A stretch of DNA of 64,000 nucleotides. It comes from Tubiluchus corallicola (lineage: Eukaryota > Animalia > Priapulida). A program made the translations under genes and the position numbers. Below are positions 1 through 62,459 of the stretch, piece by piece. Where the stretch lies: the NCBI GenBank assembly GCA_030141605.1, contig JAQGDQ010000284.1:124001-188000 (forward strand). Direction: 5' to 3'. Below the pieces are notes generated by a model. The model was not told the DNA's origin. It saw nothing but the letters and a program-made list of their open reading frames with translations, and searched no databases. Numbering within the stretch: the first letter of the stretch is position 1; the number at the start of each line of letters is the position of its first letter.

Positions 1-1010
1 GGACTCCCATTTCTTCTGCTGATTACTCAATATATATCCTCATGATCGATATGTCAAAGGCCTTTGATTGCATTCGGAGAAAAACTCTGCTTTGCTGTCT
101 GGAAGAAATCCTTGAACCTGATGAAATATAAATCATAAGTATAATGTTAGAAAATCTATTAATTCAAGTCAGGTGTGAAGGGAAATTGAGTCAGCCATTT
201 TCTACAAACAAAGTAGTACCTCAGGGTGGCTATCTAAGCCCTGTACTTTTCACTTTATATCTTGCCATAGCTCTCACTGAGGACAAAGTTATACCATTGA
301 AAGACCTAGAAGATCACAACAACACAATTCTTGATCCTAAATTAATACCAAATGAAGTAAGACAAGAACACAGTTACAGCTCTCTACAATGTAAGTCAAC
401 TACAAAACTACGATATCAATGCAGCATGCTGATGATGTGGCATGGATTACAAGAAACAAAGAAAGAAGAAGTAGATGATATAAAAAACTCAATAGAGGAG
501 AAACTGAACAGAATGGATCTTGTTGTAAATCATGGCAAAGATGCAAGTATCTCGGTAGTCTGCTAGCGACAGAGGACGAAATATTCAGACGAAAGATAAT
601 GGCATTATCATCTTACTCAAAACTCACAAAAGTTTTTGAAAATAGGAAGATTTCTTTGGAAACAAAAATTAGAATATTCTCAGCCTTAGTCGAAACTGTT
701 TTCTGTATAACTCTGAGCTCTGGACATTAAAAGCAAATCATAAAGCTGAAATCGATGCGTTTTCAAAGGCGAAATTACAGAAACATTTTGGGTATTACAG
801 GCCATAGAAAATTTCAAACGAAGATCTATATGAAAAAATAAAAGAAGAACCTTGGACAAGAAAAATAAAAAGACGACGTTTAAGATGGATTGGGCATATG
901 CTTAGACTACCTGATGACGTTCCAGTGAAGATAGCTCTTCAACAAGCCATAGAACCATCTAAAAAACCTGCAGGAGGACAAATGTTACATACTTGGATTT
1001 TGCACAGAAA
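1..1010 (+). mobile_element. Degenerate non-LTR retrotransposon (LINE, RTE-like) reverse transcriptase fragment
   Basis: RT motifs in broken frames: DMSKAFD (~48-68), VPQGGYLSPVLFTLYL (ORF 144-566), QHADD (~422-436, YADD-like), YNSELWTL (~706) and RRRLRWIGHMLR (~871), the last two typical of the RTE ORF C-terminus; frameshifts present. Confidence 0.8.
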
Positions 1011-1679
1011 GATTTAAACACTTCAGCATTGATCCTTAGAAACAAATCCACTTGGGGCATTGCAGCGTGTATGTAAAATGTTAAAGTTTGACTGAGGAAA
1101 ATGATGTGGCTGTTTGCCGCATGTCTCAGATTTAGTTCAGTTTATTTTTGTCACTCGTATATTTCACTTCATCATTATTATCATTCATTAAACATTATAT
1201 ATACACAGTTATTTGTAAACATAAGTGTTTGTGGTGTGCTAGTGCATCACCTAAACCTAAAAACTGTAAAAATTAGCTAGCTTGCAGCTGTTCAAAGTAA
1301 AAGTTTTAAATGATCAAAATTTGAAAAAGCGAAATTGTGTTTTGCATATTTGATTATTTTTGCAAAATTTATTTTTAATAAGTTAACTAATTAATTAATT
1401 AAACGATTATTGCTGTGCAATGCCACTTTTTGTAGTTAGCGTTGAAATAGTTGTGCAAAACGTAAGACAAATTACAGAAGGATAGTACAGTTTTGAATGT
1501 AGGTATGGAGGCGTGGGGTTTGGGGTTTGCTGGTGAAGAGGGGTTTAGAAAAAATAAAAATCGTAAAAATGTAAAGAAGCCATAAAATGCAGTAAAATGC
1601 CTGTGTGGCCGAGCGTTCTGTCGTTTAGCTGTGTCAAGTTTACAGGCAAATTTAGTAAAATCTGATTTACACATGGTTT

Positions 1680-3789: not shown

Positions 3790-5403
3790 TTATAAGAGCC
3801 ACAGAAGTACGATAAATAAACGTCCCGCATTACTGATTGTTGTTGTACTTGAACTATGGGAAGAGACAGATAGTAAACGGCTTCGTCCACATTTAAAGTC
3901 CGAAACCTTGAGCTGATCATTAGATATTCGGGGTTTCCAGCAGTCTACAGATGATTTGCTCCACTTCGTTTTCTTCGTCCAAACTGTCCTGCAGTCACAA
4001 GTTAGTTGACTTTCTAATAACTTGAACTCCACCGTGCTAGGATTGACTCTTAGGTGCAGCTTAGGCATCGTCATGGTGCTTATTTTTGTCCCAGTAAAAC
4101 TGATGGAACGAATTGAAGGGTTATTCGAGAGATCCAAATTGGCTACACTCAATGCAACACAGTCGATAAAAGCAATTGTCTGCAAACTCTGAATCCTGTG
4201 AAACGTACTTTGATGGATGTATTGTAACAGTTTCATGGTTTCCATTCTAAAGTGTACAATCGAACCATGTATGTTATTTTGCCTGAGAAAAGCTATATTA
4301 CTATTCATTACTAACAATGTTTCGACTTGTTTTCCCTTCAGAAACTCCTTTGGCAATTCTTTAGCTCCGTAGAAAAGGATCTTCAGCGTGATGCTGGCAT
4401 CGAGAGGCAATGATTTTGAAATTTCAGTCAGTTGGGAGTAACTCAGATCCATTTGATTACCATCACACGTTATGGTATCCAACTTTACAGTACAACCTAA
4501 AATTTCGTAAATATCCAATACTGTAGTCTCGGTTGTTGTCTTAGTTGTTGTCTTGGTTGTCGAAGTTGTCTTGGTTGTTGTCTTCGTAGTCGAAACTCCT
4601 GTGGGCTTTAGGTTAGTCGAAGACTTTGTAGTGGACACACCAGAAGGACAAAAATCCTCCAAAGTATGCTTTTCTGTTGCTACAATATTTTGTTCTTTGG
4701 TGTTAGGTAAGTGTCTACATTGTATGTAAGCTGCAATTTTCTTCATCCAGGCTGTTCTACAGTCGCAGATTAAAGGATTTTTGTGGATAAACATTTTTAA
4801 ATTTTTGAATATAACGGCTTCATCTTGAAATTTTGGCATATCCATTGTAGTGATACCTGTATTGACTATTAACAATTCACGAAACATTGGACAATTATAC
4901 AAGTCCAGATCCAACTGCTTCAACTTTTTACAGTGCTGAATACTAATTCCGTTCAAGTTGTTCAAGTTTCTGAAAGCCTGGGGGTGAATGAATACCAATT
5001 CTTTAGCCGAAGATATTTTGAAAAATTGAACCCCAGTTGCTCTAATAAACTTTTTCTCAATTTTTAGCAGATTTTCAGCGTAAAATATCTCAAGTGTTTG
5101 AACTTCTGTGCCTAGTAGAAAGTCTGAAGGCAGAGCATCGTCAACGTAAAACCACACAGAAATAAGCTCTACCGTTTTTGTATCAGCGCCAGATATCATT
5201 GCTGTTTTCAGTTTTTCCATTGTAGCCTTGTTAGGTTTTTCTAGAACACCTCTGTAAGAAAAACCACAAAATATTTCAAATGTTGCGTTTTTTGTACAGG
5301 ATTGAATGAAATCGTCACCTTCCTTTTCTCTGCCAAAACTAGGTGTTGTTAACATCATGAATACAATGCCAAACTTTGCTGAGCAAAACACGTGCAACAT
5401 CAT
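3790..5403 (-). CDS. Secreted, probably GPI-anchored leucine-rich repeat protein, paralogue 1 (537 aa)
   Basis: Intact single ORF. Hydrophobic signal peptide; LRR-like strands (FIHPQAFRNLNNLNGISIQHC); LRRCT motifs NPLICDCRTAW and SQLTCDCRTVW; Thr-rich stalk TTKTTTKTTSTT; S/T spacer plus hydrophobic C-terminus with no cytoplasmic tail. Confidence 0.88.
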   Translation of the reverse strand: MMLHVFCSAKFGIVFMMLTTPSFGREKEGDDFIQSCTKNATFEIFCGFSYRGVLEKPNKATMEKLKTAMISGADTKTVELISVWFYVDDALPSDFLLGTEVQTLEIFYAENLLKIEKKFIRATGVQFFKISSAKELVFIHPQAFRNLNNLNGISIQHCKKLKQLDLDLYNCPMFRELLIVNTGITTMDMPKFQDEAVIFKNLKMFIHKNPLICDCRTAWMKKIAAYIQCRHLPNTKEQNIVATEKHTLEDFCPSGVSTTKSSTNLKPTGVSTTKTTTKTTSTTKTTTKTTTETTVLDIYEILGCTVKLDTITCDGNQMDLSYSQLTEISKSLPLDASITLKILFYGAKELPKEFLKGKQVETLLVMNSNIAFLRQNNIHGSIVHFRMETMKLLQYIHQSTFHRIQSLQTIAFIDCVALSVANLDLSNNPSIRSISFTGTKISTMTMPKLHLRVNPSTVEFKLLESQLTCDCRTVWTKKTKWSKSSVDCWKPRISNDQLKVSDFKCGRSRLLSVSSHSSSTTTISNAGRLFIVLLWLL

Positions 5404-5540
5404 TTTGCACCATTACATCTGCAAAGTTGCGCCAGATAATTCTCGAATTTTCCACAAAGCTTGAAGGCATCAGTGAGAAAGTGACAGGAATCTCTGATAC
5501 GTCACCAATGAAACAATTATTCATTCGTTGCTATGTTACA

Positions 5541-10504: not shown

Positions 10505-12160
10505 TTATATGAAGTGCAGGAGAATGAGAAATAAACTTCCCATGTTACTGATCGTTGTTGTACTAGTACTTTTGGCAGAGACATGTCGGGCACGCGTTCT
10601 GTCACAGTTGAAATCTGAAAGCTTTAGCTGTTCATTAGATATTTGAGGTTCCATGCAGTCAACCAATGATTTGCTCCAATTCACTTCCTTTGTCCAAACA
10701 ACTTTGCAGTCACAAGTTAGTCGACTTTCTAATAACTTGAACTCCACCGTGCTGGGATTAACACCTGGGTGCATCTCAGGCATCGTCATGGTGCTTATTT
10801 TTGTCCCAGTAAAACTGATAGAACGAATTGAAGGGTTATTGGAGAGATCCAAATTGGCTACAGTCAATGCAACACAGTCGATAAAAGCAATTGTCTGCAA
10901 ACTCTGAATCCTGTGAAACGTTTTGCTATGGATCAATTGTAACTGTTTCATGGTTTCCATTCGAAAGTTTACAATCGAACCATGTATGTCATTTTGCCCG
11001 AGAAAATTTATATTACTTTTCATTACCAACAATGTTTCGACTTGTTTTCCCTCCAGAAACTTCTGTGGCAATTGTGTAGCTTCGTAGAAAAGGATCTTCA
11101 GCGTGATGCTGGCATCGAGAGGCAATGATTTTGAAATTTCAGTCAGCTGGTAGTGACCCAGCTCCATTTGGTTGCCATCACATGTTATGGTATCCAACAT
11201 TACAGTACAACCTAAAATTTCGTAAATATCCAATACTGTAGTCTCAGTTGTTGTCTTGGTTGTTGAAGTTGTCTTGGTTGTTGTCTTGGTTGTTGAAGTT
11301 GTCTTGGTAGTCGAAACTTCTGTAGGCTTTAGGGTTGTCGACTGTTTTGTAGTGGAGACAGCAGATGGACAAAAATCCTCCAAAGTATGCTCTGTTGTTG
11401 CTACAATATTTTGTTCTTTGGCATTAGGTAAGTGTCTACATTGTATGCGACTCTGACCATTCTGTTCCTCAATTTTCTTCATCCAGGCTGTTCTACAGTC
11501 GCAGATTAAAGGATTGTTTTGGATAAACAATTTTAAATTTTTGAATATAACGGGTTCATCTTGAAATTTTGGCATATCCATTGTAGTGATACCTGTACCG
11601 AATATGCTCCATTGATGAAACTTTGGACAATTATACAAGTCCAGATCCAACTCCTTCAACTTTTCACAGTGCTGAATGCTGATTTCTTTCAAATTATTCA
11701 AGTTGCTGAAAGCATGGGGGTGAATGAATACCAATTCTTTAGCCATATAAATTTTAAAAAATTGAACCCTCTTGGCACTGATGAAGTTTTTCTCGATTTT
11801 GAGCAGACTGTAGGCGTACCGTATCTCAATATATGAAACTTCTGTGCCTCGTAGAAAGTCTGAAGGCAGAGCATTGTCTACGTAATGCAACACAGAAATA
11901 AGCTTTGCCGTTTTTGCAGGTGTATCAGCGTCAGCTGTTATTGCAGTTTTCAGTTCTTCCATGGTAGCCTTGTTAGGTTTTTCTAGAACACCTCTGTAGT
12001 AACCACCACAAATTATATCGAATGTAAACTTTGATCTCTTTATTGAACAGAATTGAATGAAATGGTCGCCTTCTCTGTCACCGCCCAAACTAGGTGTTAT
12101 TAACATCATGAATACAACGCCAAGCTTTGCTGTGTAAAACATGCGCAACATTTTTCCCAT
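10505..12160 (-). CDS. Secreted, probably GPI-anchored leucine-rich repeat protein, paralogue 2 (~551 aa)
   Basis: Intact single ORF collinear with 3790-5403; first ATG at 12160 (track start 12178 is GTG); same signal peptide, two LRR+LRRCT modules, Thr stalk and hydrophobic tail; 5' and 3' flanks also homologous to those of paralogue 1. Confidence 0.88.
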   Translation of the reverse strand: MGKMLRMFYTAKLGVVFMMLITPSLGGDREGDHFIQFCSIKRSKFTFDIICGGYYRGVLEKPNKATMEELKTAITADADTPAKTAKLISVLHYVDNALPSDFLRGTEVSYIEIRYAYSLLKIEKNFISAKRVQFFKIYMAKELVFIHPHAFSNLNNLKEISIQHCEKLKELDLDLYNCPKFHQWSIFGTGITTMDMPKFQDEPVIFKNLKLFIQNNPLICDCRTAWMKKIEEQNGQSRIQCRHLPNAKEQNIVATTEHTLEDFCPSAVSTTKQSTTLKPTEVSTTKTTSTTKTTTKTTSTTKTTTETTVLDIYEILGCTVMLDTITCDGNQMELGHYQLTEISKSLPLDASITLKILFYEATQLPQKFLEGKQVETLLVMKSNINFLGQNDIHGSIVNFRMETMKQLQLIHSKTFHRIQSLQTIAFIDCVALTVANLDLSNNPSIRSISFTGTKISTMTMPEMHPGVNPSTVEFKLLESRLTCDCKVVWTKEVNWSKSLVDCMEPQISNEQLKLSDFNCDRTRARHVSAKSTSTTTISNMGSLFLILLHFI

Positions 12161-12599
12161 TACAGGTTGCAAAGTCACATCGGATAGCTCTCGAATTTTA
12201 TGTTAGAACAAAACTTGTTCAAGGTGTGAATGCATCACAGAAACTGCCAGTATAAATAAGAATGCGACAGCAATATTTCTGTTACGTTTCCAAGGAAACA
12301 ATTATTCATTTGGTTGCCGAGTCGTCACATGGTAACTTGTAAATTTCCAGTCACTTAATCGAAATTTCACAAAACTAAGTGGAAAATTCCAGCAGCTAAA
12401 ACAAAATTTCGAGTCACTAGTTGGTTTTTTTATATACAAAGTGCAAATTTTGGAGGTTTTTCACCCCCTTTCTTCCCAGTGAGCCCGATTCGGAAAATTA
12501 ATTCCTTGTGGTAAGTTTGTGGGTCCAGACGTTTCGTTTGAAATATCTACATTAAACATATATATTTAATAGATAGAAATTGATGGATAGATAGCCAAA

Positions 12600-15444: not shown

Positions 15445-16020
15445 AAGAATGCAGGCAATCGTACAATGTACAAATTTGTGCGAGGCATACAGGAGACATA
15501 ATTATTGGAAGCTGAACGCTAAGTTATTGTTGTTGGCATCCTTCTGTCTCGGAAGACAATGGAATGTGCGTCAAGAGAGTCCGATCCTTGAACGTCTCCA
15601 GGGCGCACGCCTGGGCAAGGTGTATGGAGATCCTGAGTTGCCCAGATAACAGGAACCCCTCTCTTCTTCGCTGGTGTAGTCCAAAGGAAAGCGGAGCGAT
15701 ACGTTTGGCACCAGGTTGGCTGCAGGAGCTGCCGTAGTCAGTGAGCATGCTGCACTGGTCCGCCTTCGGGGCTCCACTCCTGATTGAGAAGGTACTCCTC
15801 TACAGATGGCCTTTGGGCCACTTGACCTCCTCCGCCCTCTAGCCGTTGGCTGCTTGTGCAGCTCCTCCGTCTAGTGTCGAGATACAGTGTGGGCATCCCG
15901 CAAGCCTACAGCACCTAGTATTCCTAGGCGGTCACCCATCCAAGTACTAACCACGCTCTGCGTTGCTTAACTTCGGTGATCAGACGAGAACCGGTGTTTT
16001 CAACGTGATATGGCCGTAGA
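15445..16020 (-). mobile_element. 5S rRNA-derived SINE (SINE3-type), copy 1
   Basis: Near full-length 5S head running without an oligo-T terminator into a ~450-bp body shared with 60607-61095. Confidence 0.85.
15902..16020 (-). rRNA. 5S rRNA-like sequence (head of SINE copy 1, probably not a bona fide 5S gene)
   Basis: Reverse complement tctacggccatatcacgttgaaaacaccggttctcgtctgatcaccgaagttaagcaacg...ttagtacttggatgggtgaccgcc...gctgtaggctt matches metazoan 5S, including boxes A and C. Confidence 0.8.
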
Positions 16021-17014
16021 TGTGATTCGAGATATGAAAACGAAAATCGAAAGTGCCGCCCGAAAGCGGTCCTCCCAGAATGCATTTCGTAGCGTCACGT
16101 GAACGCTTTGTTGTGCTCTTATCTCACGTGAACGCATTCAATAACCATGGGTCCAAAAAATATGAAAGAGACATGCGTTTAAGTGCTATCGCAGGGGAGT
16201 TTGAGCGAAACTTTTCGACGATCAGTCATTAACGAACATATTTCTATCGGGTGGGTACAATATTTACACTTTGCAAGACTGTTTGGGGGGTGGGGTGGGG
16301 GTGGAACGAATTACGCCATTGATAGGGTAATCTTGTCTCATAATACGAAAATTCTAAGATACGAAAGCCCCTCCGGAACGAATTAATTTCGTATCTCGAG
16401 GTATCACTGTATATAATTATCAGTAACCCTACTACTAGACAATCATATGACAAGAATATATTATAATAATTATATTAGATTTAGATTAGATTAATATTAG
16501 ATTAGTTTGTTTCAGCACAAAAGCCATACAGAAAACGTAAAAGATGGTAAAACAATTACATCACACTAATGTTGTACGGTATGTTGTCATGTTGTACGGT
16601 ATGTTGTCATGTTGTACGGTATGTTGTCATGTTGGTTGGTGCTATAAAGTAATGACTCCTTGATAAAAAGACGCCAGAGTCATTGCGTTTTCTTTACACT
16701 TCCCGTTTACCTGCTTTAAATTCTAGCTGAATACCATCTGTACTCGCCCGAGTTCATCTAGTCAGTGTTTTTTTCACATCTCTTGTCAAATTCGGCAGGT
16801 GTGGGCCATACTGTCTCCTCCCTCTAAGCAGAGGCAATATCCAGTAGTTGTTTTTGGTCAGTTTACGTTGAGCAAACAGTGTCGTGTGGCACCTGCTTTA
16901 GCCCGCCTTTCTACAAGATCAATATTTGCTAAATGTTGTGCATAAACTCAACATATTAAACGCGCCGAGGTTTTTTAACACCTGCAGGCGTTTCAGTTGA
17001 ATTTTAACCAGTAT

Positions 17015-38540: not shown

Positions 38541-38699
38541 GTGATATTTTACGACAGTGACTGGAACCCGACTGTCGACCAGCAGGCCATGGATCGAGCA
38601 CACAGACTGGGCCAAACTAAACAGGTTACTGTCTACAGGCTCGTCTGTAAAGGCACAATAGAAGAGAGAATACTGCAGAGAGCAAGAGAGAAATCCGAG
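38541..38699 (+). CDS. INO80: INO80 exon ([53 protein letters not shown], motif VI)
   Basis: AG/GT flanks, 159 nt, phase 0-0. Confidence 0.95.
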
Positions 38700-39438: not shown

Positions 39439-39541
39439 ATTCAGAGAATGGTCATAAGTGGTGGTCAGTTCAAGCCGAATACGCTCAAACCGACGGAAGT
39501 TGTGTCACTTCTTCTGGACGATGCTGAGATGGAGACCAAAC
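39439..39541 (+). CDS. INO80: INO80 exon (IQRMVISGGQFKPNTLKPTEVVSLLLDDAEMETK)
   Basis: ttacttag acceptor, gtgagt donor; INO80 post-helicase motif. Confidence 0.93.
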
Positions 39542-39801: not shown

Positions 39802-39956
39802 TGCAACAGAGGCAAGAAGAAAGAAAGCTTGCAGAAGATAAGAACAAAGAAAAAGACCGAAAGCGGAAGAGGGAGAAAGTAGTTCGGGGCGGGACTCCGT
39901 CACCTCGAATCGCACCTTCTCCTGGTGCGGCGGCCTCTCCGCAAGTACCTGCCAAG
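39802..39956 (+). CDS. INO80: INO80 exon (LQQRQEERKLAEDKNKEKDRKRKREK...VPAK)
   Basis: Phase-1 acceptor matches the previous donor; basic stretch as in INO80; aag|gtaaga donor. Confidence 0.85.
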
Positions 39957-39993
39957 GTAAGAGTTTCATTGATTTGCGTCATTCATGGAAATA

Positions 39994-40201
39994 AGCCTTT
40001 TCACAGTTCCAGCGATTGATGATAATTGTGAATAGGTCAAAGGTTAAGTGTACCAGACCACACATTTCTGTACACTTGACAATGTCTCACAGCCCATACT
40101 GTTGTAATAGTAACAGTTTTAACAGCTAGCTAGAACCTTACTTTGTTCATTACCTTGTTCCCCTAGTAAATCACTCTATGCACAGACTAATGCATAATTA
40201 A
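39994..40201 (+). mobile_element. Truncated MITE family C (left half)
   Basis: Begins with TIR agccttttcacagtt; homologous to 45086-45306. Confidence 0.8.
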
Positions 40202-41349
40202 CTCCATGTAAAACAAATATATGTCATTATAGGACACGCTCAAAAAAGAGCTCCGTGATTCTAGTGGAAATTCTCAACTATTTCTCTTCAAAAATGTAAA
40301 TCAGTGAAAAATCTGTGGGCCTGCACTCATGAATTCCTCCATGTTAACCAAGAAACTGTGTAATATTTAGTACGTTCGACACACTGTGTTGAACCTGGTT
40401 TCAATTTCTAGAACAGGTAAAACTGGATGATCTTGTCCTTTAACACGACGGTTCATGTCTAGATAGCCTGTTCAGTTGAGCGTATGACCAATCACTTACT
40501 TTCTTGTAAAGGAGATCTAGGACAGGTATGAGGTGGGACCCTTCCCAGAGCTAACTAGGTGCGTGCTCATATACCTACAGTCACTACTTGCTTTATTGTA
40601 GTAGATAAATTTGCTTAATGAGTAATTAACTAATGACTCATTCAATTAACATAAGTAATTAACTAAATTAAGCTATTAATGCAACCTAAGTATAGGATAT
40701 ACATGAAATCATACTAGAATACGAAGTCAACTATATTAAAAGGGGTTGCAATGCTGCTCCGTAGTTCTTATATTCCAGACTGAAGTTACAGCAACCTATA
40801 GACTGGGTATATTTTTCTTGTACATATATAATTATTGCTAGCTCTATAATAATTATATTTTCATTTTGAGTACAACTACATTATCAAGCCTTGAAAATAT
40901 GTAATGGCCACCAATAAATAAAAATATAAACAAAATGAACCTAAACGACTGTATCAAGAGTCCATGTTTAGAATTAAATATACAGCAACAATTTATCCAA
41001 GACGCCATGCTTCCCTATTTACATCTGATAACACTGCTCAGACAAACTCCTTATTTGCCAGGATAAGTTGTTTGTTTGTTTGTCATCAGTTTGCTGTGAT
41101 TAAGGTACAACAGTCAGTCTTAATATCAAGATGCACAAATTTTATTATCACAGCTTGTGGAATTATTATTTGCTAGAACGTTCTACTATCTGGTACAAGT
41201 TTACGTGCTTGAAAATAAAATAAAGCATAAGACCATTTTGTATGCTGTTTGTATGATATTTTTGATAGACAATATAAATTAGCCACTTCGGTTTTTCTGC
41301 TACCTGACTAAATGATTACAGTGAGAAGTGTTTTTGATTCATTGTTGAT

Positions 41350-43815
41350 ATGGAAAAAATCGAGGAACTTATTTACAGTGTGTCAGATGCCGATCAAATA
41401 TCGGAACTCGAGACGTTACTAACTGGTTACCAATTTGCTCATCTTGGTGCAGATAGAACACAATGGCTCAACAAGCTGCTACATGCTGCAACGCGCTTTA
41501 ACATGCGTGAGCTTGTTGATGAACTTCTCAACAGAGGAGCAGAAATAGAAAGTGTATCACATATCGCTAGAAAACATTCAGATCCAGATTATATTACTCG
41601 AGATTATGAAGGAGGAACCCCCCTTGAAGCTGCTTGTAGTTTGGGACATACTTCTCTTGTTGAGCGACTCATTGAACGGGGTGCTGAAATAAACTGTCTT
41701 TCTAGAAGGAATGAATGGTCGCCTTTAACATTAGCAGCTAGAAATGGACATACAGAAATTTGTGAAATGCTGTTGGTTCATGGAGCAGAAGTTGATGGCT
41801 TCCCAGAAACGTATAAAATACGACCTATACAGCATGCATCATGGGAAGGCCGCATTGAAGTAGTGAAGCTGTTAATTAAATACGGCTCCGAAATTGATGA
41901 ACATCCTTACGTTTCAGTTGATGGTCATCCGCCCCTCCATGCTGCAGCATTTCAAGGACAGTTTGGAGTCATTGTTTATCTGCTTCTCAAAGGTGCAAAT
42001 GTCTTCTACGCAGACATAAAAGGTGGTACCGCTCTGCATGCGGCAGCAATGCAAGGACATGTTCATTGTGCAGCACTTCTGATTTTTGCGGGCTCTGACA
42101 TTCTGGCAAAAAATAATGATGGTGAGACCCCACTTTCCATAGCATGTATGAAGGATAGACTGGATGTTCTTAAACTATTATATGAAAATATGCTAGAGAG
42201 GTATTCACACAAAGTAGTGAGGGAGATTATAAAAAAACTTTACACTGGAGGAACTTTAATTCATCTGGCTTGTCAAAATGCTCACTTGTCAGCTCAAAGT
42301 GTAGAAATTGTTAAATATCTCGTTGATGTAGGTGTTCATACCGAAATGTTAAATGACTCTCATGAAACGGCTTATGATATGTGCATTCGACGAGCTTACG
42401 AAAAGGCATTGAACAAAAATTACAAACAAATTGCAGGACTTTTTCTTTCTTATCGGTACTTTCAAATGTGGCAAAAAGTGTCTTCAAAGCTTTCTGTCAC
42501 AGAAGATGATGAAACTGTGTCAAAAAACATTTGTGGATTGTCTCTAAAGGACTTGGTTTACATGCCTGGATTAGGAGCAATTTCAAGTGTGAAAGAATTT
42601 TACGATATTAGAACCAGTATAACTCGATTGTTGCGTGCTGTTAGCAGAATTCTTTACAGAAATCATCACATAAGATTTACGCCCATACTTGTTGGCAGTT
42701 CAGCTTGTGGAGTAAAGATTGGCCAGCCAGATGAATTTGATTTTTTTGTTGTGGTACAACTGCACAGAGATTTCACAGCTGATTATTTTATCAAACATCA
42801 TTCATTGTCTGATGGAAAATTAAAGGAGACATTTTCCCAATACTTGTGCAGAGCCGTGGCAACAGCTTTGCAAGAAAAGAAATTTAAAGAAATAATTGTG
42901 CCAAACAGCTTTCCACATGTAGTGGAATGGAATAAAGTCTGTACATGTTTGAAATTATGTGTTCTGTTGCCAAACAAAAAAATAGCACAAGTGTCTGTAG
43001 ATGTGACACCATGTTTTGAAAAAGTGGGAGTACCAAAGAATGCTAATGATAAATGGCCAAAGTATGTCAACAGTTATCACTACGTGCTCAAACCAGTCGA
43101 ATCAAAAATAAAAGTTGAACCCACATTTGCTGTTGCTGAATGTGGATTTATAAAGAACTTAGACAACAACTGTAAGATAGTGTTTATCCTCATAAAGGTG
43201 CTAGTAAAGCCTGTCCTGTATTGTTGCAACAAAGAAATACATTTATATCCCAATCATCATGCTTCAACATTTCACACCATTTTGGTCAGTGCAGATGTCA
43301 ACTTGCCAGAATTATACAGAGCAATAAAGTATCAACCAGATAAAGTCATTGACTCTTACATGTTAAAAGTGGCCTTCTTGCACGAAGTGGTGACCACTAA
43401 AGATGACTGGGGCACAGAAAACTTGAAAGCTCATGCTGTCTCTATATTCCAGTACATTGGGCACTGTTGCCGAGACGGTGCAATGTTTCACCCACTGCTA
43501 AATGATGTCAATATCTTAGAAGATCTAAAACATAAAGAAATGAGTGGCATTCCATTATTAACATTGGCAGAAGATGCAGCACGTGCTATAGAAAAGAAAT
43601 TAACTGATGGCGCCATACCATCAAATAAAGGTCTAATGGAACCAGATTTTGAAAAGTACCGTGCTATGCTGAAAACACATGCACTAACTCAGGGGGAAGG
43701 AATATTGGTCAAGGCGGAAATTGTGAGAGTTGATTTCTATTTAAGATACGTTTGGGATTGGATAAAACTAAGTGATACGAAACAGCAAAGTAAGTACATC
43801 TTACAAATGCATTAG
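41350..43815 (+). CDS. Ankyrin-repeat plus Mab21/cGAS-like nucleotidyltransferase fusion protein (ANK-cGLR), 821 aa, nested in an INO80 intron
   Basis: ~8-9 ANK repeats (GTPLEAAC, SPLTLAA, PPLHAAA, TALHAAA, TPLSIAC); NTase motif LVGSSACGVKIGQPDEFDF, third acidic residue in VSVDVTP; Mab21 C-lobe motifs FAVAE, CKIVFILIK, SYMLKVAFLH..W, HCCRDG.MFHPL..VNIL. Confidence 0.9.
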   Translation: MEKIEELIYSVSDADQISELETLLTGYQFAHLGADRTQWLNKLLHAATRFNMRELVDELLNRGAEIESVSHIARKHSDPDYITRDYEGGTPLEAACSLGHTSLVERLIERGAEINCLSRRNEWSPLTLAARNGHTEICEMLLVHGAEVDGFPETYKIRPIQHASWEGRIEVVKLLIKYGSEIDEHPYVSVDGHPPLHAAAFQGQFGVIVYLLLKGANVFYADIKGGTALHAAAMQGHVHCAALLIFAGSDILAKNNDGETPLSIACMKDRLDVLKLLYENMLERYSHKVVREIIKKLYTGGTLIHLACQNAHLSAQSVEIVKYLVDVGVHTEMLNDSHETAYDMCIRRAYEKALNKNYKQIAGLFLSYRYFQMWQKVSSKLSVTEDDETVSKNICGLSLKDLVYMPGLGAISSVKEFYDIRTSITRLLRAVSRILYRNHHIRFTPILVGSSACGVKIGQPDEFDFFVVVQLHRDFTADYFIKHHSLSDGKLKETFSQYLCRAVATALQEKKFKEIIVPNSFPHVVEWNKVCTCLKLCVLLPNKKIAQVSVDVTPCFEKVGVPKNANDKWPKYVNSYHYVLKPVESKIKVEPTFAVAECGFIKNLDNNCKIVFILIKVLVKPVLYCCNKEIHLYPNHHASTFHTILVSADVNLPELYRAIKYQPDKVIDSYMLKVAFLHEVVTTKDDWGTENLKAHAVSIFQYIGHCCRDGAMFHPLLNDVNILEDLKHKEMSGIPLLTLAEDAARAIEKKLTDGAIPSNKGLMEPDFEKYRAMLKTHALTQGEGILVKAEIVRVDFYLRYVWDWIKLSDTKQQSKYILQMH

Positions 43816-44677
43816 TCATTTGGTTAAATCTAGTCATCAGAAATCCAATGTTGTAATAAGTATTGCACGAAATCCAAGCAAATATTTGTATTTGGGAACT
43901 CAATGTACAGTATCACTTGTACGAAATCGGCTTATGCAGAAAATTTCAACTGTCCCGGCATAACACTCTGATATACTTTGGCCTCAAGTATATTCTATTT
44001 TTAAGCAGAAATTCCTCTTGGAATTTGAGACGACCTTAATTTATCCTTGATTGAACAGTTGGTTTTTGCTGGAAATCTGTACAGCAGACTCTTGGGTTGT
44101 AGCAAGCAGGTGATCAATAAACTAACGTATACGATCACGCAAGTGTACACCAGACTAAGCTACTCAACGGGCTAAGTTGCAATGTCGGAAAAAGGAGTTT
44201 TTCTTAATTTTATCCAATTAAATCTTAAATGCTTAAGCAAATAGCATGATTGGATAACGGAGATTCTCGTGAATAGTACCTATTTTGTAATCATTTAGTT
44301 ATGTCTGTGTTCATACAGTAGCAGAAAAGTCATAGGTCTTATAAAATCTAATTTTAATGGTGCGGTCCTGAGGAAGTTAAACAGCACTTATTGCAATTGT
44401 TTCTTTGTGTAAATTCCGATGTTTTGTTGAAACTTGAAAACGTAAGCTGTTCCGAAGACCTTGCACAGAAACGAAACATTAATGTTATTGTATCGGGGAA
44501 GAAAATGAATCATGCAGTTTGTAATGACACACGCAGGAAAGCTCAATTACAAAGTTGTTAAATTTTCACCCATTTAAAGACGAACAACATGACAGCAAAT
44601 TTTAAATCGCTCTCCTCCATAAATAATTACGTGTTTTACAAATAGAAATTACGAACGAATGAATTTACTTTTGATAC

Positions 44678-44812
44678 CTGGTGTTTGGATAGCATATGAC
44701 GAGCAGAACGGAGATCTTTGCCCGCATCTTGTGCAACCAACGCCTTCTCCATGTCGTCAAGCGTCTTGTGTGCTTCGACAATCGTCAAGTTGAAGTTTTT
44801 CTGATGAGAGGC
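44678..44812 (-). other. Isolated spectrin-repeat exon (ASHQKNFNLTIVEAHKTLDDMEKALVAQDAGKDLRSARHMLSKHQ)
   Basis: 135 nt, phase 0-0, ttcttttctag acceptor and cag|gtatc donor; D.GKDL.S...L.KHQ is the spectrin helix A-B signature. Confidence 0.72.
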
Positions 44813-45085
44813 CTAGAAAAGAATGAATAAACTAATATATCATTTATTAACACATCTTGCTTTGTGAATGTCTAGTGAGATGGTTAAAATCACTCGAGGC
44901 AAAAAGCACTTTCATGAGTTAACTGAGACATAAGTTATACGACGATTAAAGATTTCTGTTATTGGAAATAAGCTTTGTAAATCCACAACCAGTTAACAAT
45001 AAGGTGAAATTAAGTTTCGGACTTTTTGGACCATTGCTTTGTGAAACGTTTCAGTTTCACTTAAACCATCAGTGTAATATTAATG

Positions 45086-45469
45086 AGCCTTTTCACAGTT
45101 CCAGCTATTGATGTTGATCGTGAAAAGGTCAAGGGTTAAGCGTAACAAACAACACATTTGTGTACACTTGACAACGCTTCTCAGCCCATTCTGTTGTAAT
45201 CGTCACAGTTTTTACAACTAGCTAGAACCTTGCCTAGTTCGTTTTTTCTTGTTCCACAGCAAAATCCTGGTAGTAAACCATTCTACACACACTAATGCAT
45301 AATTAAGTACGGTTGATGTACAGCTACTGTAGTTACTGAACTGGTGTGGCAGACAGCTTTACTTTACCCACATGTCACATGGCGGTTGTAGTTAAGACGC
45401 GTTGCTGCTGTACACTTGACCTTTGACCTACAGCAACTGTGCATGCGCACAACGAAACTGTGAAAAGCT
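45086..45469 (+). mobile_element. MITE family C, full copy
   Basis: TIRs agccttttcacagtt / aactgtgaaaagct; ~380 bp. Confidence 0.85.
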
Positions 45470-47879
45470 TTATTTGATCGTTGAAAATGTGATTTTTTTT
45501 GGTTTATATCTTATCAAAATTAATTTTTTGGCTGCTTTACCCATAAATTTAAACGGAGCTGCTTTTCTATGGAAATCGTTGTTATATCCGTGGATTTTTC
45601 ATTTTCCCACTGTTGTAGTCAAAGATGAAAATTACATATATTCTGCCCCTTGTCTTGATCACCGTGGATTGACCTGCTAACAAAACTAGAGGTGGTCGGG
45701 AAGATATCTAAAAACCTACTTCTTTTAGCTATAAGTAACGTTAGCTTTAGCAATATGGTAAACCTTGGATTATGAAATGTCTGGTTTGATGTACAGAATG
45801 TACACTTTTTATCGAATTTAAAAATGGAGTAGTATGTGAAAAACCGTCCTGTTTTCCTTTAATCATCTAACCACAGATATGTACAGTTCTCAGTGATGCA
45901 AAGTGCTAAAATCTTCTAGGTTAGGCACAAAAGAAACTGTTCTAGCAACAGCTGTGACAAGGTCATAACGTTCCGTAGGTAAGAGGATAGATTGCTTTCA
46001 TTTCCAATCTGTCTTTATTTGCACTTTCCAGCAAGCTAGGTCGTTCATATTTCATTCTCAAGTGTGGAAAAGGTCCTTGTAGTGGCCAGGCATTATCAGA
46101 TTTCTTTTCCAGACGACAAAAAATCTACAATGCATTGCTGTTTGTTGGTCGGAGACCTTCATACTGGGAATGAATTTAAATTTTCCCGAAATTCAGGCTT
46201 AAACATGAAATGAACTCAAATCACCATACGTGTAATGAACTTCAATTGGGAGAAACATGCTAGAATTTCAGGGAAAACAAAAGATGTTTCCAATTTTACG
46301 GAATAACTTTGATTATTAAAAAAATTTTTATTTTATTACGAAAACTCAATACAACAATACAACGTATCAAAACACGATATGATAACATGGTATGCATAGT
46401 TACATTAATTTCATAATAAAATCGACATGACATGATGTCTATATAAATTGTTGCTTGCATTATAGTCAGAAGCAATACTTGTGTGACTGTAATGTAATTA
46501 ATGGTGCTGATGTTGGGATGCAAAAAAGGGAAGGTAAAAAATAATGGAATGATAGTGGAGAATGCAGGAGACGGGAATTAGTACAAGACTGCCAAGACTA
46601 TTAAATCAAGCCTGTCTTTTTTATTCGTTCATTATATATTTATTTGTTATTTACTTGGTACTAATATATGCAAAATAGTAAACAAACATGATATCATCTA
46701 AAACATATTTATAGTGAAGACACTTAAAGACAGTTAAAAGGAAAAACAACGAAATTTTAAAGTATGTCCCAAAGACTTGTGTAATTGCAAAAAATGTTAA
46801 TAATTTAAAATATTTGTGTGTCGACTGGTCAAATCTCACCCTATCACTGTCCATTTGTGTCCAGCGAATAACTTATTGTTTATCTTACGGACACTATAAA
46901 GTAATTTTTCTTAATTGGGGTGCATTATGTTGTTCCGATTATTTTTCAAGCTTTGTGCAGTGTTTTTTGAAGAAGAAGAAAATGGATGCCCTGATGTCGG
47001 TTTCAGAAAAATCGCATTAAAAAATTACATTACTTTACAGCAATTTTATGCATATAGCCTACTCCCTTTGAAAGGATTTTTTGTTTGTTTTCATTTTAAA
47101 TCTCATCTGTTCCGATGACGCCATTACATGACGTCATATACGCACAATGTAAATCAGGGGAAGAAAAGGCAATGTTATACTATGTCCCAAAAAACGTTCC
47201 ATGTAAAGTTATATTACCCTTATATTTCACTTGCCTGATTGAAAAACTTCTGAAACTAAAAAAGAAAATTATTAATTATTTAAAATGTTTTCACCAATTG
47301 GTAAAATGTCGCTGACTCACCCTCCAGGGTGCGCCACTCACTAACCAAAACACGTATTTTTAATCTTATTGACAAGTTACAGCAATTTAAAATTTTACTT
47401 ACTTAGTTCAAGTGTGAGCTACGAATGCTGTGATTATTTTTCAAACTTTACGCAATGTTATAAAGGAAATGTCGTCAAAATGGCTGCGCCCTCCCGCGAG
47501 TTTTCGCGGGAGTTTAAATTTTTTTTTAATAATAATAGTAAGTTTATTTGGAAGTGTAAATACAAATACAATATCAAGAAACACTGGGAAAAATAGATAT
47601 TACTAATAATGATTATATGACAGCGTGCATATGATAAATGGCAAGAACCAGAAGTAAAACTTGTTAGGTGCTTGCAACATTCTAAACACGTTCAAATAAT
47701 GAGAAAAAAAAGAACAAAAAAAACCGAAAGTTTTTGGGCAATTAAAAAAAAGAGTTGTGCAAAGTAAGGATAGAAGTGATTGATAAAAGAATGTTCAAAA
47801 GGGTAGGAAGAGTGGCTTGTGGAGATTCGGGTCTCATGAGATGACGAAGCACTCTGGATTCTACTCAAAAAGAAGACAA

Positions 47880-54710: not shown

Positions 54711-54827
54711 AAAGGGCGTGGCCGGCCGAGGAAGTATCCGCGCCCGGAAGAAGTCAACACAACCGTTGCGGCTCCGGCGGTGGAAACGGAGCAGGTTGCC
54801 AGTCACGAGTCTGTCTCTGCCAGCCCA
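54711..54827 (+). CDS. INO80: Probable INO80 C-terminal exon with AT-hook (KGRGRPRKYPRPEEV...SASP)
   Basis: ttattgcag acceptor, gtgagt donor; phase 0 matches the donor at 39956; GC-rich coding-like island; RGRP motifs are known in INO80 tails. Confidence 0.65.
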
Positions 54828-55047
54828 GTGAGTGCATAGTTTTAATACTTTTTAATAAATTTCATTAATTATTTGGTCAGTTTGTTTGTCAGTTGGTTGT
54901 AATTCCATTGGAAGAATCAGGCAGGTGAGTTTGGGTGGTAATAACTGGATGCCTCATTGACTGGTCTCCCATTCAGTTAACAAGCAGATTCAACATTGCT
55001 CCCATTACACTTTTTAGAAGTTGCGCCTTAATGAAATTGCTAATAAA

Positions 55048-60606: not shown

Positions 60607-61095
60607 AAGAATGCAGGCAATCGTACAATATACGAATTTATGCGAGGCAATACAGCAGAGATAATTATTGAAAGCTGAACGCTAAGTTATTGTTGTTGGC
60701 ATCCTCGGAAGACAATGGAATGTGCGCCTAGAGAGTCCGATCCTTGAACGTCTCCAGGGCGCACGCCTGGGCAAGGTGTATGGAGATCCTGAGCTGCCCA
60801 GACAACAGGAACCCCCTCTCTTCCTCCCTAGTGTAGTCCAAAGGAAAGCGGAGCGATACGTTTGGCACCAGGTTGGCCGCAGGAGTCAGTGAACATGCTG
60901 CACTGGTCCGCCCTCTAGCTGTTGGTTGCTTGTACAGCTCCTCCACCTAGTGTCGAGATGCAGTGTGGGCATCCCACAAGCCTACAGCACCTGGTATTCC
61001 TAGGCGGTCACCCATCCAAGCACTAACCAGGCTCTGCGTTGCTTAACTTCGGTGATCAGACGAGAACCGGTGTTTTCAACGTGATATGGCCGTAG
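60607..61095 (-). mobile_element. 5S rRNA-derived SINE (SINE3-type), copy 2
   Basis: 5S head plus the same body as 15445-16020, with internal deletions. Confidence 0.85.
60978..61095 (-). rRNA. 5S rRNA-like sequence (head of SINE copy 2)
   Basis: Matches metazoan 5S; no T-run terminator downstream. Confidence 0.8.
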
Positions 61096-61462
61096 TGAAT
61101 CAGATAAGTTAAGACAACTATGAAACGTTTTACAATTGCGCAGCAAAAAATCAATAAATAATTAATCTAAATCTGTAGTGATAAAGATCACATTTCCAAA
61201 AGATGCTTCTATGAACAGCTCACACATTAAGTCTTTTTCATTCGTAATTTAGTGAAAGATTGCCTTCATTGGTTCATATGTAATCTGTGACAATTTCTTA
61301 TACTTTTATTTCCTTCATACACTCTTATAACATTTCGTAAATGCAGGGCAGCCTGTTTATAAGTCCATTTCTTTCGGACTTCTTACACGTGGAATTCTTT
61401 TTATCAAAAATTGTTTCCCTGAATCCATGTCACTGATACCTTCTATCATTAGGAGATCACTA

Positions 61463-61851
61463 AGCGTTTTCACAGTTTCGTTGTGCGCACGCGCAGTCGC
61501 TGTAGGTCAAAGGTTAAGTGAACCACAGCAGCGCATCTTAACTACATCAGTCACGTAACGTGTTGGTAAAGCAAAGCCGTCTGCCACATCAGTTCAGAAA
61601 TTTCAGTTGTTTTACGTGGCCTTTACTTAACTATACGCACTCTTCTGCACGTAGAGTAATTTACTAGCAGGATCTTGCGTGAGAACAAGAAAAAATGAAC
61701 TAGGTAAAGTTCTAGCTAGCTGTTGAAGCTGTTGCTATTACAACAGCATGGGCTGCGAGACGTTGTCAAGTGTACACAGATGTGTTGTCTGGTGCACTTA
61801 ACCTTTGACCTTTTGACGATCATCAGCAATCGTTGGAACTGTGAAAAGTCT
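61463..61851 (-). mobile_element. MITE family C copy
   Basis: Reverse-complement homology to 45086-45469; TIR remnants ttttcacagtt / aactgtgaaaag. Confidence 0.8.
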
Positions 61852-62459
61852 TATTTTTCTGGACGTAGGATGCACGTCCATGTTTCCATTTTTCTATTAC
61901 AGCGCCTCACTCTGAAGGGGACAATCTTATTTGGGACGCTTTGTATGTAAAAAAGACAAGTGAGCAAAAATGCTGTCATGGTCTGGCCGTAGACGCAGGA
62001 ACATTGTTATGGTCACAAACAGACACTAGCGCACCCTGGTGTCAATTTATTTCCCAAATTAACATGAAAGGCGAGTCATAATGATAATTGCAATATTAAT
62101 CCGGTAAAGATAATCACGTCACAATGAATGAGAACAACTTTCTACACGGGGAGACAATATAAGAGAAATTAAGACACGCCCAGCCAATTAAGAAATGAAT
62201 AAAGGCAGCAAGGATACTGCACATATGCGTAGAGAGGACAGATTGACATCTTATACATGAATAGGCAAAGATTGTCTAAAATTTCAAAACCTATTCTAGA
62301 GGCAACGTAGAGAGAGAGACTGTTGTCTTCTCTTCTATGAATGCCATAATAATTTATGCACAGGTTAAGTGACGGATGCATTATGGGTACAAAAGTAATT
62401 TTTTCCTTTGTCTATCATGTACACGCAACACTAAACTAGGCTGAAATGTTCTCACTTCC

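Follow-up and report, generated by a model that had tools for sequence, protein, structure and literature searches.

Introduction

The closest described relatives of the gene reported here are the animal cGAS-like receptors (cGLRs). In the catalogue of Li et al. (2023; 10.1101/2023.02.22.529553, PMC9980059), 87% of 3,020 cGLRs are single-domain proteins, and some carry ankyrin or TPR repeats. The activators named there for animal cGLRs are dsDNA and dsRNA: one or the other triggers nine of the 15 active enzymes, and six are active without a known ligand. Nucleic-acid sensing is tied in that work to an isoelectric point (pI) above 8.5, and ligands other than nucleic acids are proposed for acidic cGLRs.

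The same catalogue lists ankyrin-repeat cGLRs (ANK-cGLRs), in agreement with an earlier note on the present DNA, which had stated that invertebrates possess cGLRs with accessory repeats. Those of Stylophora, decapods, and rotifer- and bivalve-type accessions in Table S2 resemble our sequence (hereafter the query) in joining ankyrin repeats to a Mab-21 nucleotidyltransferase (NTase) domain. In Table S2, as far as it is covered here, an ankyrin row is found for none of the 15 active enzymes, so that the ANK-cGLR type comes without a positive control, nor for the oyster and coral proteins Cv-cGLR1 and Sp-cGLR1. A search for six ankyrin motifs in residues 1-400 of the screened cGLR constructs gave no match, which is a weak test, and the covered part of the biochemical screen table holds no Priapulus protein. 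On the mechanism of ANK-cGLRs, the literature within our scope, from which subscription papers mostly fall out, yields nothing beyond Li et al. (2023).

Here we describe an ANK-cGLR gene in a 64-kb stretch of DNA (the window). The architecture itself is not new, since Li et al. (2023) list ANK-cGLRs, two of them from the same clade as the query. The new details are a missing hairpin, a WNKVC motif in place of the GPA loop and a likely location in an intron of INO80.

Results

An intact reading frame with an ankyrin array

The reading frame at 41350-43815 (plus strand; Table 1) almost certainly encodes an ANK-cGLR. The earlier note had described it as uninterrupted, and its 821 codons indeed contain no stop or frameshift, an event with a chance of about 3e-26 at the local composition. 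An in-frame stop lies four codons upstream of the ATG, the start Met is common to the closest relative (P0002), and a candidate poly(A) signal is found at 44116. The active-site motifs also lie where they had been placed (GSS from 42694, PDEFD to 42741, VSVDVTP at 42991-43011), and the C-lobe motifs spoken of in general terms can be pinned to SYMLK at 43354-43368 and to a Pfam Mab-21_C match above cut-off. Taken as a whole, the assignment to an ANK-cGLR with intact catalytic motifs is backed by HMM, fold and conservation.

The proposed number of eight to nine N-terminal ankyrin repeats is a fair count: a small HMM made from the relatives picks out six repeats, and two to three degenerate ones are visible by eye (aa ~258-279, 299-327 and 337-349). 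Pfam Ank_2 matches the query at E 4.9e-59 in six stretches, and the N-terminal part of the array is acidic (pI 5.8-5.9).

Table 1. Features of the ANK-cGLR gene and of its surroundings in the window
Feature	Position	Strand	Remarks
ANK-cGLR reading frame, single exon, 821 aa	41350..43815	+	51% identity over 798 columns to P0002
Ankyrin array, aa ~41-349, 8-9 repeats	41470..42396	+	6 by HMM, others degenerate
Conserved junction helices after the last ankyrin repeat, aa 341-370	42370..42459	+	
cGAS/Mab-21 fold, aa 395-760 (NTase lobe and helix bundle)	42532..43629	+	AlphaFold2 model
Catalytic motif G449-S450, K456, E462, D464	42694..42741	+	
Short loop/helix, aa 472-489, replacing the beta-hairpin of other clade members and cGAS	42763..42816	+	
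WNKVC signature of the clade, aa 527-531, before the strand preceding the third-Asp strand	42928..42942	+	13/13 clade members
Third catalytic Asp, D551	43000..43002	+	in 15/15 alignment rows covering the column
Conserved C-lobe residues K581, E597, K616, S669-Y670, K673	43090..43368	+	
C-terminal extension beyond the cGAS fold, aa 761-821, predicted as two helices	43630..43812	+	
INO80-like gene	33827-54839	+	exon 38541-38699 matches INO80, E 3e-28
Likely INO80 exon upstream of the ANK-cGLR gene	39802..39956	+	ends in GT donor, phase 0
Candidate last INO80 exon	54711..54839	+	AG acceptor, in frame, AT-hook-like GRGRP motif, stop
Lone 45-codon alpha-spectrin-like exon	44678-44812	-	AG/GT borders; brain alpha-spectrin E 1.4e-6; Pfam Spectrin E 0.006
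Dispersed repeat family 1	39990-40216, 45082-45470, 61462-61856, 63072-63445		copies 76-81% alike
Dispersed repeat family 2	43900-44347, 53032-53488		copies 76-81% alike

Relatives and the WNKVC clade

Scanned in full with the enzyme domain, 1.84 billion representatives yielded 19 matches at E 1e-3 and 13 at 1e-10. Ten of these 13 are long ankyrin-repeat proteins, and the other three are short fragments from contigs 1-2.3 kb in length. Two further relatives came from a second search. When 19 domain rows were placed in a tree, the query grouped with 12 relatives on a single branch (support 100/99 against six outer rows); the tree has a midpoint root and only these six outer rows, with the fragments P0006, P0014, P0016 and P0020 and the truncated P0017 left out. 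We refer to this branch as the WNKVC clade, a grouping made in this analysis and without a published name. The named close relatives of the query (n = 6) are all from Priapulus caudatus, and the closest relative of all, P0002, is 51% identical and colinear along its whole length. Metagenome, viral and prokaryote collections, queried with exact-peptide seeds that are sensitive to close relatives only, returned no close relative. A viral or bacterial origin was considered and set aside, the named relatives being animals and the Atlas look-alikes belonging to eukaryotic Mab-21 clusters.

Ankyrin repeats are present in all 13 clade sequences and the junction is conserved (G363 in 9/9 further clade members; A349, N355 and L366 in 7/9 each), so the fusion of ankyrin array and cGLR is old and stable. 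D464, D551, S450 and K616 are kept in 13/13 clade members and E462 in 12/13; the catalytic Glu is lost in P0024, from Priapulus caudatus. More broadly, of the 56 columns that at least 10 of the 11 other members conserve, the query has the family residue at 46, a figure inflated because the relatives were found using the query itself; it has that residue at 12 of 62 variable columns, a pattern as would be expected for a constrained gene.

Two Priapulus clade members, XP_014668761.1 (P0010) and XP_014666123.1 (P0023), are listed in Table S1 of Li et al. (2023, PMC9980059), which counts two cGLRs for this species; three further Priapulus caudatus clade accessions are absent from those tables of the paper that were searched. 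Six clade members were found in this animal, P0009, P0012, P0013 and P0024 among them. P0010 and P0023 share with the query the ankyrin array, LVGS, WNKVC, the junction and the C-terminal extension, and P0010 is 28% identical to it over 702 columns (E 2e-56). Unlike these two, the query is without the W-x-x-S Trp, and its spine helix is basic. Outside the clade stand the Ruditapes and Mercenaria ANK-cGLRs XP_060574718.1 and XP_053383686.1 (P0018, P0021), which differ from the query in exceeding 2200 aa (about 2270 aa) and in lacking WNKVC; each carries a pair of cGLR domains, numerous ankyrin repeats and a MYND finger.

The enzyme domain

The earlier note proposed a comparison with the Pfam profiles Ank, Mab-21_C and Mab-21. 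Matches to the first two were found, Mab-21_C at 29.1 bits against a cut-off of 24.1, but the Mab-21 NTase profile stayed below the same cut-off of 24.1 (18.4 bits, E 0.0025). With phmmer, the enzyme domain alone gave 0 matches in the PDB at E 10. In contrast to the lone domain, a relative and the alignment profile do match cGAS and cGLRs there, the profile covering both lobes (Sp-cGLR1 at 4.4e-8, cGAS at ~5e-6).

A single-sequence model of the domain was unusable (pLDDT 37), and an alignment-based AlphaFold2 model was used instead (18 rows, the query and 17 relatives, with P0017 again excluded; pLDDT 89.3, pTM 0.89). The superposition on cGAS that the note had suggested was obtained: the model aligns with mouse cGAS 4o6a at Z 23.7 (rmsd 3.1, 294 residues aligned), up to about model residue 370. 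Among 48,161 representative chains the oyster Cv-cGLR1 (8gjw) ranks first at Z 22.7, as it does in Foldseek (E 2.8e-10), and the first four matches are three cGLRs and cGAS (Z 22.7, 20.4, 19.9 and 19.7). They are followed by MiD49, a bacterial CD-NTase, MB21D2, MAB21L1 and OAS1 (Z 19.2, 18.1, 17.8, 17.5 and 17.2), lower matches that differ among themselves by only ~1-2 Z. The two-lobed fold and the catalytic triad are thus common to the query, Cv-cGLR1, Sp-cGLR1 (8gjy), Tc-cGLR (7lt2) and mouse and human cGAS, with Z 19.7-23.7, rmsd 3.0-3.9, 286-299 residues aligned and 13-19% identity between the query model and these proteins. These cGLRs and cGAS are dsDNA- or dsRNA-activated; unlike the query, they keep the hairpin and lack the C-terminal extension of ~60 residues.

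The cGLR active-site motif is present in the query as G449-S450, 11 residues, E462-F-D464-F, 84 residues and V550-D551-V. The residue before GS is V448, whereas the motif as written wants Q or T. This position does not discriminate, since T precedes GS in only one of the 15 active cGLRs, Q in none and V in one, and since two LVGS clade members stand in the curated list. By the three criteria of the catalogue the query therefore belongs to the cGLR family, bar this one non-discriminating letter. Two computationally designed cGAS chains, 7lz3 and 7kxs, also show VGS, to which we attach no weight. The loss of catalytic acidic residues of the Mab21L/MiD49 type is not seen, all three being present. 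In the C-lobe, the conserved residues were matched to the nucleotide-pocket residues of cGAS by eye, against the human sequence.

Hairpin, acceptor side and charge

The query and P0002 are without the beta-hairpin that cGAS uses as DNA site B. The span from D464 to F495 measures 31 residues in the query and 32 in P0002, against 40-57 in the 11 other clade members (42-45 in P0010 and P0023) and 53 in human and mouse cGAS by hand count. In the model, aa 472-489 form no strands (pLDDT 52-57). In human cGAS, R236 and R255 bind the nucleosome via the site-B region (PMC10572901); by hand count on the sequence, both are located in the hairpin stretch.

The acceptor side is altered as well. Most active cGLRs have, by eye, a GPA or SPA loop where WNKVC stands, and 12 of the 13 clade members, again by eye, lack the Arg found in the W-R-L-S strand of cGAS. 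In addition, the query has V589 at the conserved Trp of the W-x-x-S strand, which is W in 10 of 11 others. The commonest product of the cGLR family is 2'3'-cGAMP, but the acceptor-side residues of the query differ from those of cGAS, and given WNKVC at the GPA/SPA position and the missing Arg this product cannot be assumed.

With six K/R and two D/E, the spine helix of the query is the most basic of the 11 compared; the other ten are net acidic in nine cases and neutral in one. The pI of the query domain is 8.44-8.77 depending on the boundaries chosen and so straddles the threshold of 8.5 for nucleic-acid sensors, while that of the full-length protein is 6.86. Across the clade the domain pI ranges from 5.7 to 8.7, and P0002 has an acidic spine and a value of 6.4.

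Genomic setting

Four plus-strand exons (38541-38699, 39439-39541, 39802-39956 and 54711-54839) are bordered by AG and GT and can be joined into a single frame whose sole stop comes at the end. Since one of them matches INO80, the ANK-cGLR gene likely sits within the last INO80 intron, which would be 14.7 kb long, and in the same orientation. The candidate last exon gave no Pfam match, and its assignment comes from frame, splice sites and the AT-hook-like motif. Further likely INO80 exons lie near 32.3 kb and 33.8 kb. That the ANK-cGLR frame might be an INO80 fusion exon was rejected, if weakly, as no strong in-frame acceptor was found near the ATG. A tblastn search of the 64-kb window with cGLR proteins found no second cGLR copy.

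The alpha-spectrin-like exon was the sole Pfam match among 113 minus-strand reading frames between 33.3 and 63.5 kb, picked by composition from 487 in the window. It may be a stray that arrived together with the cGLR, in which case the alpha-spectrin gene would be the likely source, or else belong to an overlapping gene whose introns are very long; its position amid dispersed-repeat copies hints at a segment copied from elsewhere. Repeat family 1 and part of family 2 are matched by many contigs of one listed run, which match the dispersed repeats only (4/30 bins) and neither an INO80 exon nor the ANK-cGLR gene, and which are uninformative on expression.

Elsewhere in the window, 3790-5412 and 10505-12202 (minus strand) are tandem single-exon genes, 73% identical; in both, the N-terminus and the C-terminal tail are hydrophobic, and a Thr-rich stretch separates two LRR-like blocks. 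Their Pfam LRR matches are weak, and they likely encode surface-anchored LRR proteins. Full-length 5S rRNA matches (104-106 bits) at 15903-16021 and 60979-61097 (minus strand) have several hundred bases of common flank, 90-95% alike, and represent either dispersed 5S units or a 5S-derived repeat. A decayed reverse-transcriptase piece at 132-1014 (plus strand; RVT_1, E 5.7e-5) is likely a LINE remnant.

Discussion

Our results suggest that the query is an ANK-cGLR gene which, as far as its sequence can tell, is very probably in use. That it works like cGAS we can only infer; catalytic activity is nonetheless probable. The reading we favour, to which we assign a probability of roughly 0.4, is that the protein is an active cyclic-dinucleotide synthase, which would stay off for as long as neither a protein partner nor a pathogen protein binds the ankyrin array. 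It is favoured by a fold nearest to the cGLRs and cGAS and by the retention of the triad and the C-lobe lysines. In line with this notion, Priapulus caudatus, with its six clade members, has five STING genes (Table S5 of Li et al., 2023, PMC9980059), although the Priapulus members are only 25-28% identical to the query, so that this number says little about the organism in hand.

From what is known of the family, two-metal nucleotidyl transfer would yield a cyclic dinucleotide that would signal to STING. The ankyrin array, fixed to the enzyme by the conserved junction, may gate this activity on binding a protein, and the weakest step of the scheme is the proposal that the array, rather than a nucleic-acid groove, would be the input. 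At the family level, the acidic spine helices and the range of domain pI would favour an input other than nucleic acid; in the query and P0002, the absence of the site-B hairpin points the same way. Provided that the enzyme is active, the odds lean slightly toward ankyrin gating by a non-nucleic-acid ligand. To see in the array a sensor or autoinhibitor with a ligand other than DNA, as the earlier note had done, is in this regard reasonable, but the basic spine helix of the query argues the opposite way.

This helix, together with a domain pI of 8.4-8.8, leaves room for nucleic-acid sensing by the query, and an ordinary cGLR would bind dsRNA or dsDNA there while the ankyrin array only scaffolds or localises, in keeping with the 9/15 active cGLRs that answer these ligands (Li et al., 2023, PMC9980059). 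We regard this as rather unlikely, as P0002, the nearest relative of the query at 51% identity, combines an acidic spine with a domain pI of 6.4, the site-B hairpin is gone and the full-length pI is 6.9. A loss of function is a different matter. With the hairpin and the W-x-x-S Trp lost and the Mab-21 NTase score under its cut-off, the enzyme could be a weakened one, or a nucleotide-binding adaptor like MAB21L1 (Z 17.5) or MiD49 (Z 19.2) that has kept the fold and lost the cyclase, the ankyrin array doing the work; the missing catalytic Glu of P0024 would fit such a course. Pseudo-enzymes usually lose catalytic acidic residues, however, and here D464, D551, S450 and K616 persist in every clade member and the Glu in all but one despite 25-30% overall identity, which makes an adaptor improbable.

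An active nucleotidyltransferase might also have another output, namely an OAS-like linear oligonucleotide or the transfer of a nucleotide onto a protein recruited by the ankyrin array. WNKVC in place of the usual loop, the missing W-R-L-S Arg and the shared fold of OAS1 and the CD-NTases (Z 17-18) speak for it, but the best structural matches are cyclic-dinucleotide synthases and two clade members figure in the curated cGLR list (Li et al., 2023, PMC9980059), so that we give this alternative only a small chance. Just as small is the chance that the gene is a silent duplicate of recent arrival, which reached the INO80 intron along with the spectrin-like exon and has yet to decay. That exon does lie alone, 860 bases downstream on the opposite strand; dispersed-repeat copies (39990-40201 and 45082-45306, 79% alike) flank it together with the gene, and GC3, at 0.31, is lower than in two short INO80 exons (0.54 and 0.62). 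The flanking repeat is no mark of a fresh insertion, though, since the window contains another two copies of it and the flanking pair have diverged by 21%. The 821 intact codons, the full-length colinear relative and the candidate poly(A) signal likewise speak against silence, and a moved copy may be expressed too.

The gated synthase thus remains our preferred reading. A bolder version of it, in which a hairpin-less cGLR with an acceptor pocket rebuilt around WNKVC would be triggered by protein and make a new animal second messenger, seems to us quite unlikely. As a bare sequence, the gene is one more member of the catalogued ANK-cGLR architecture. If the bolder version is true, it would be the first animal cGAS-like receptor triggered by protein. 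Being compact and free of introns, with a natural deletion of the site-B hairpin, the gene lends itself readily to the questions of whether cGLRs are gated by their accessory repeats and whether a ligand other than nucleic acid exists.
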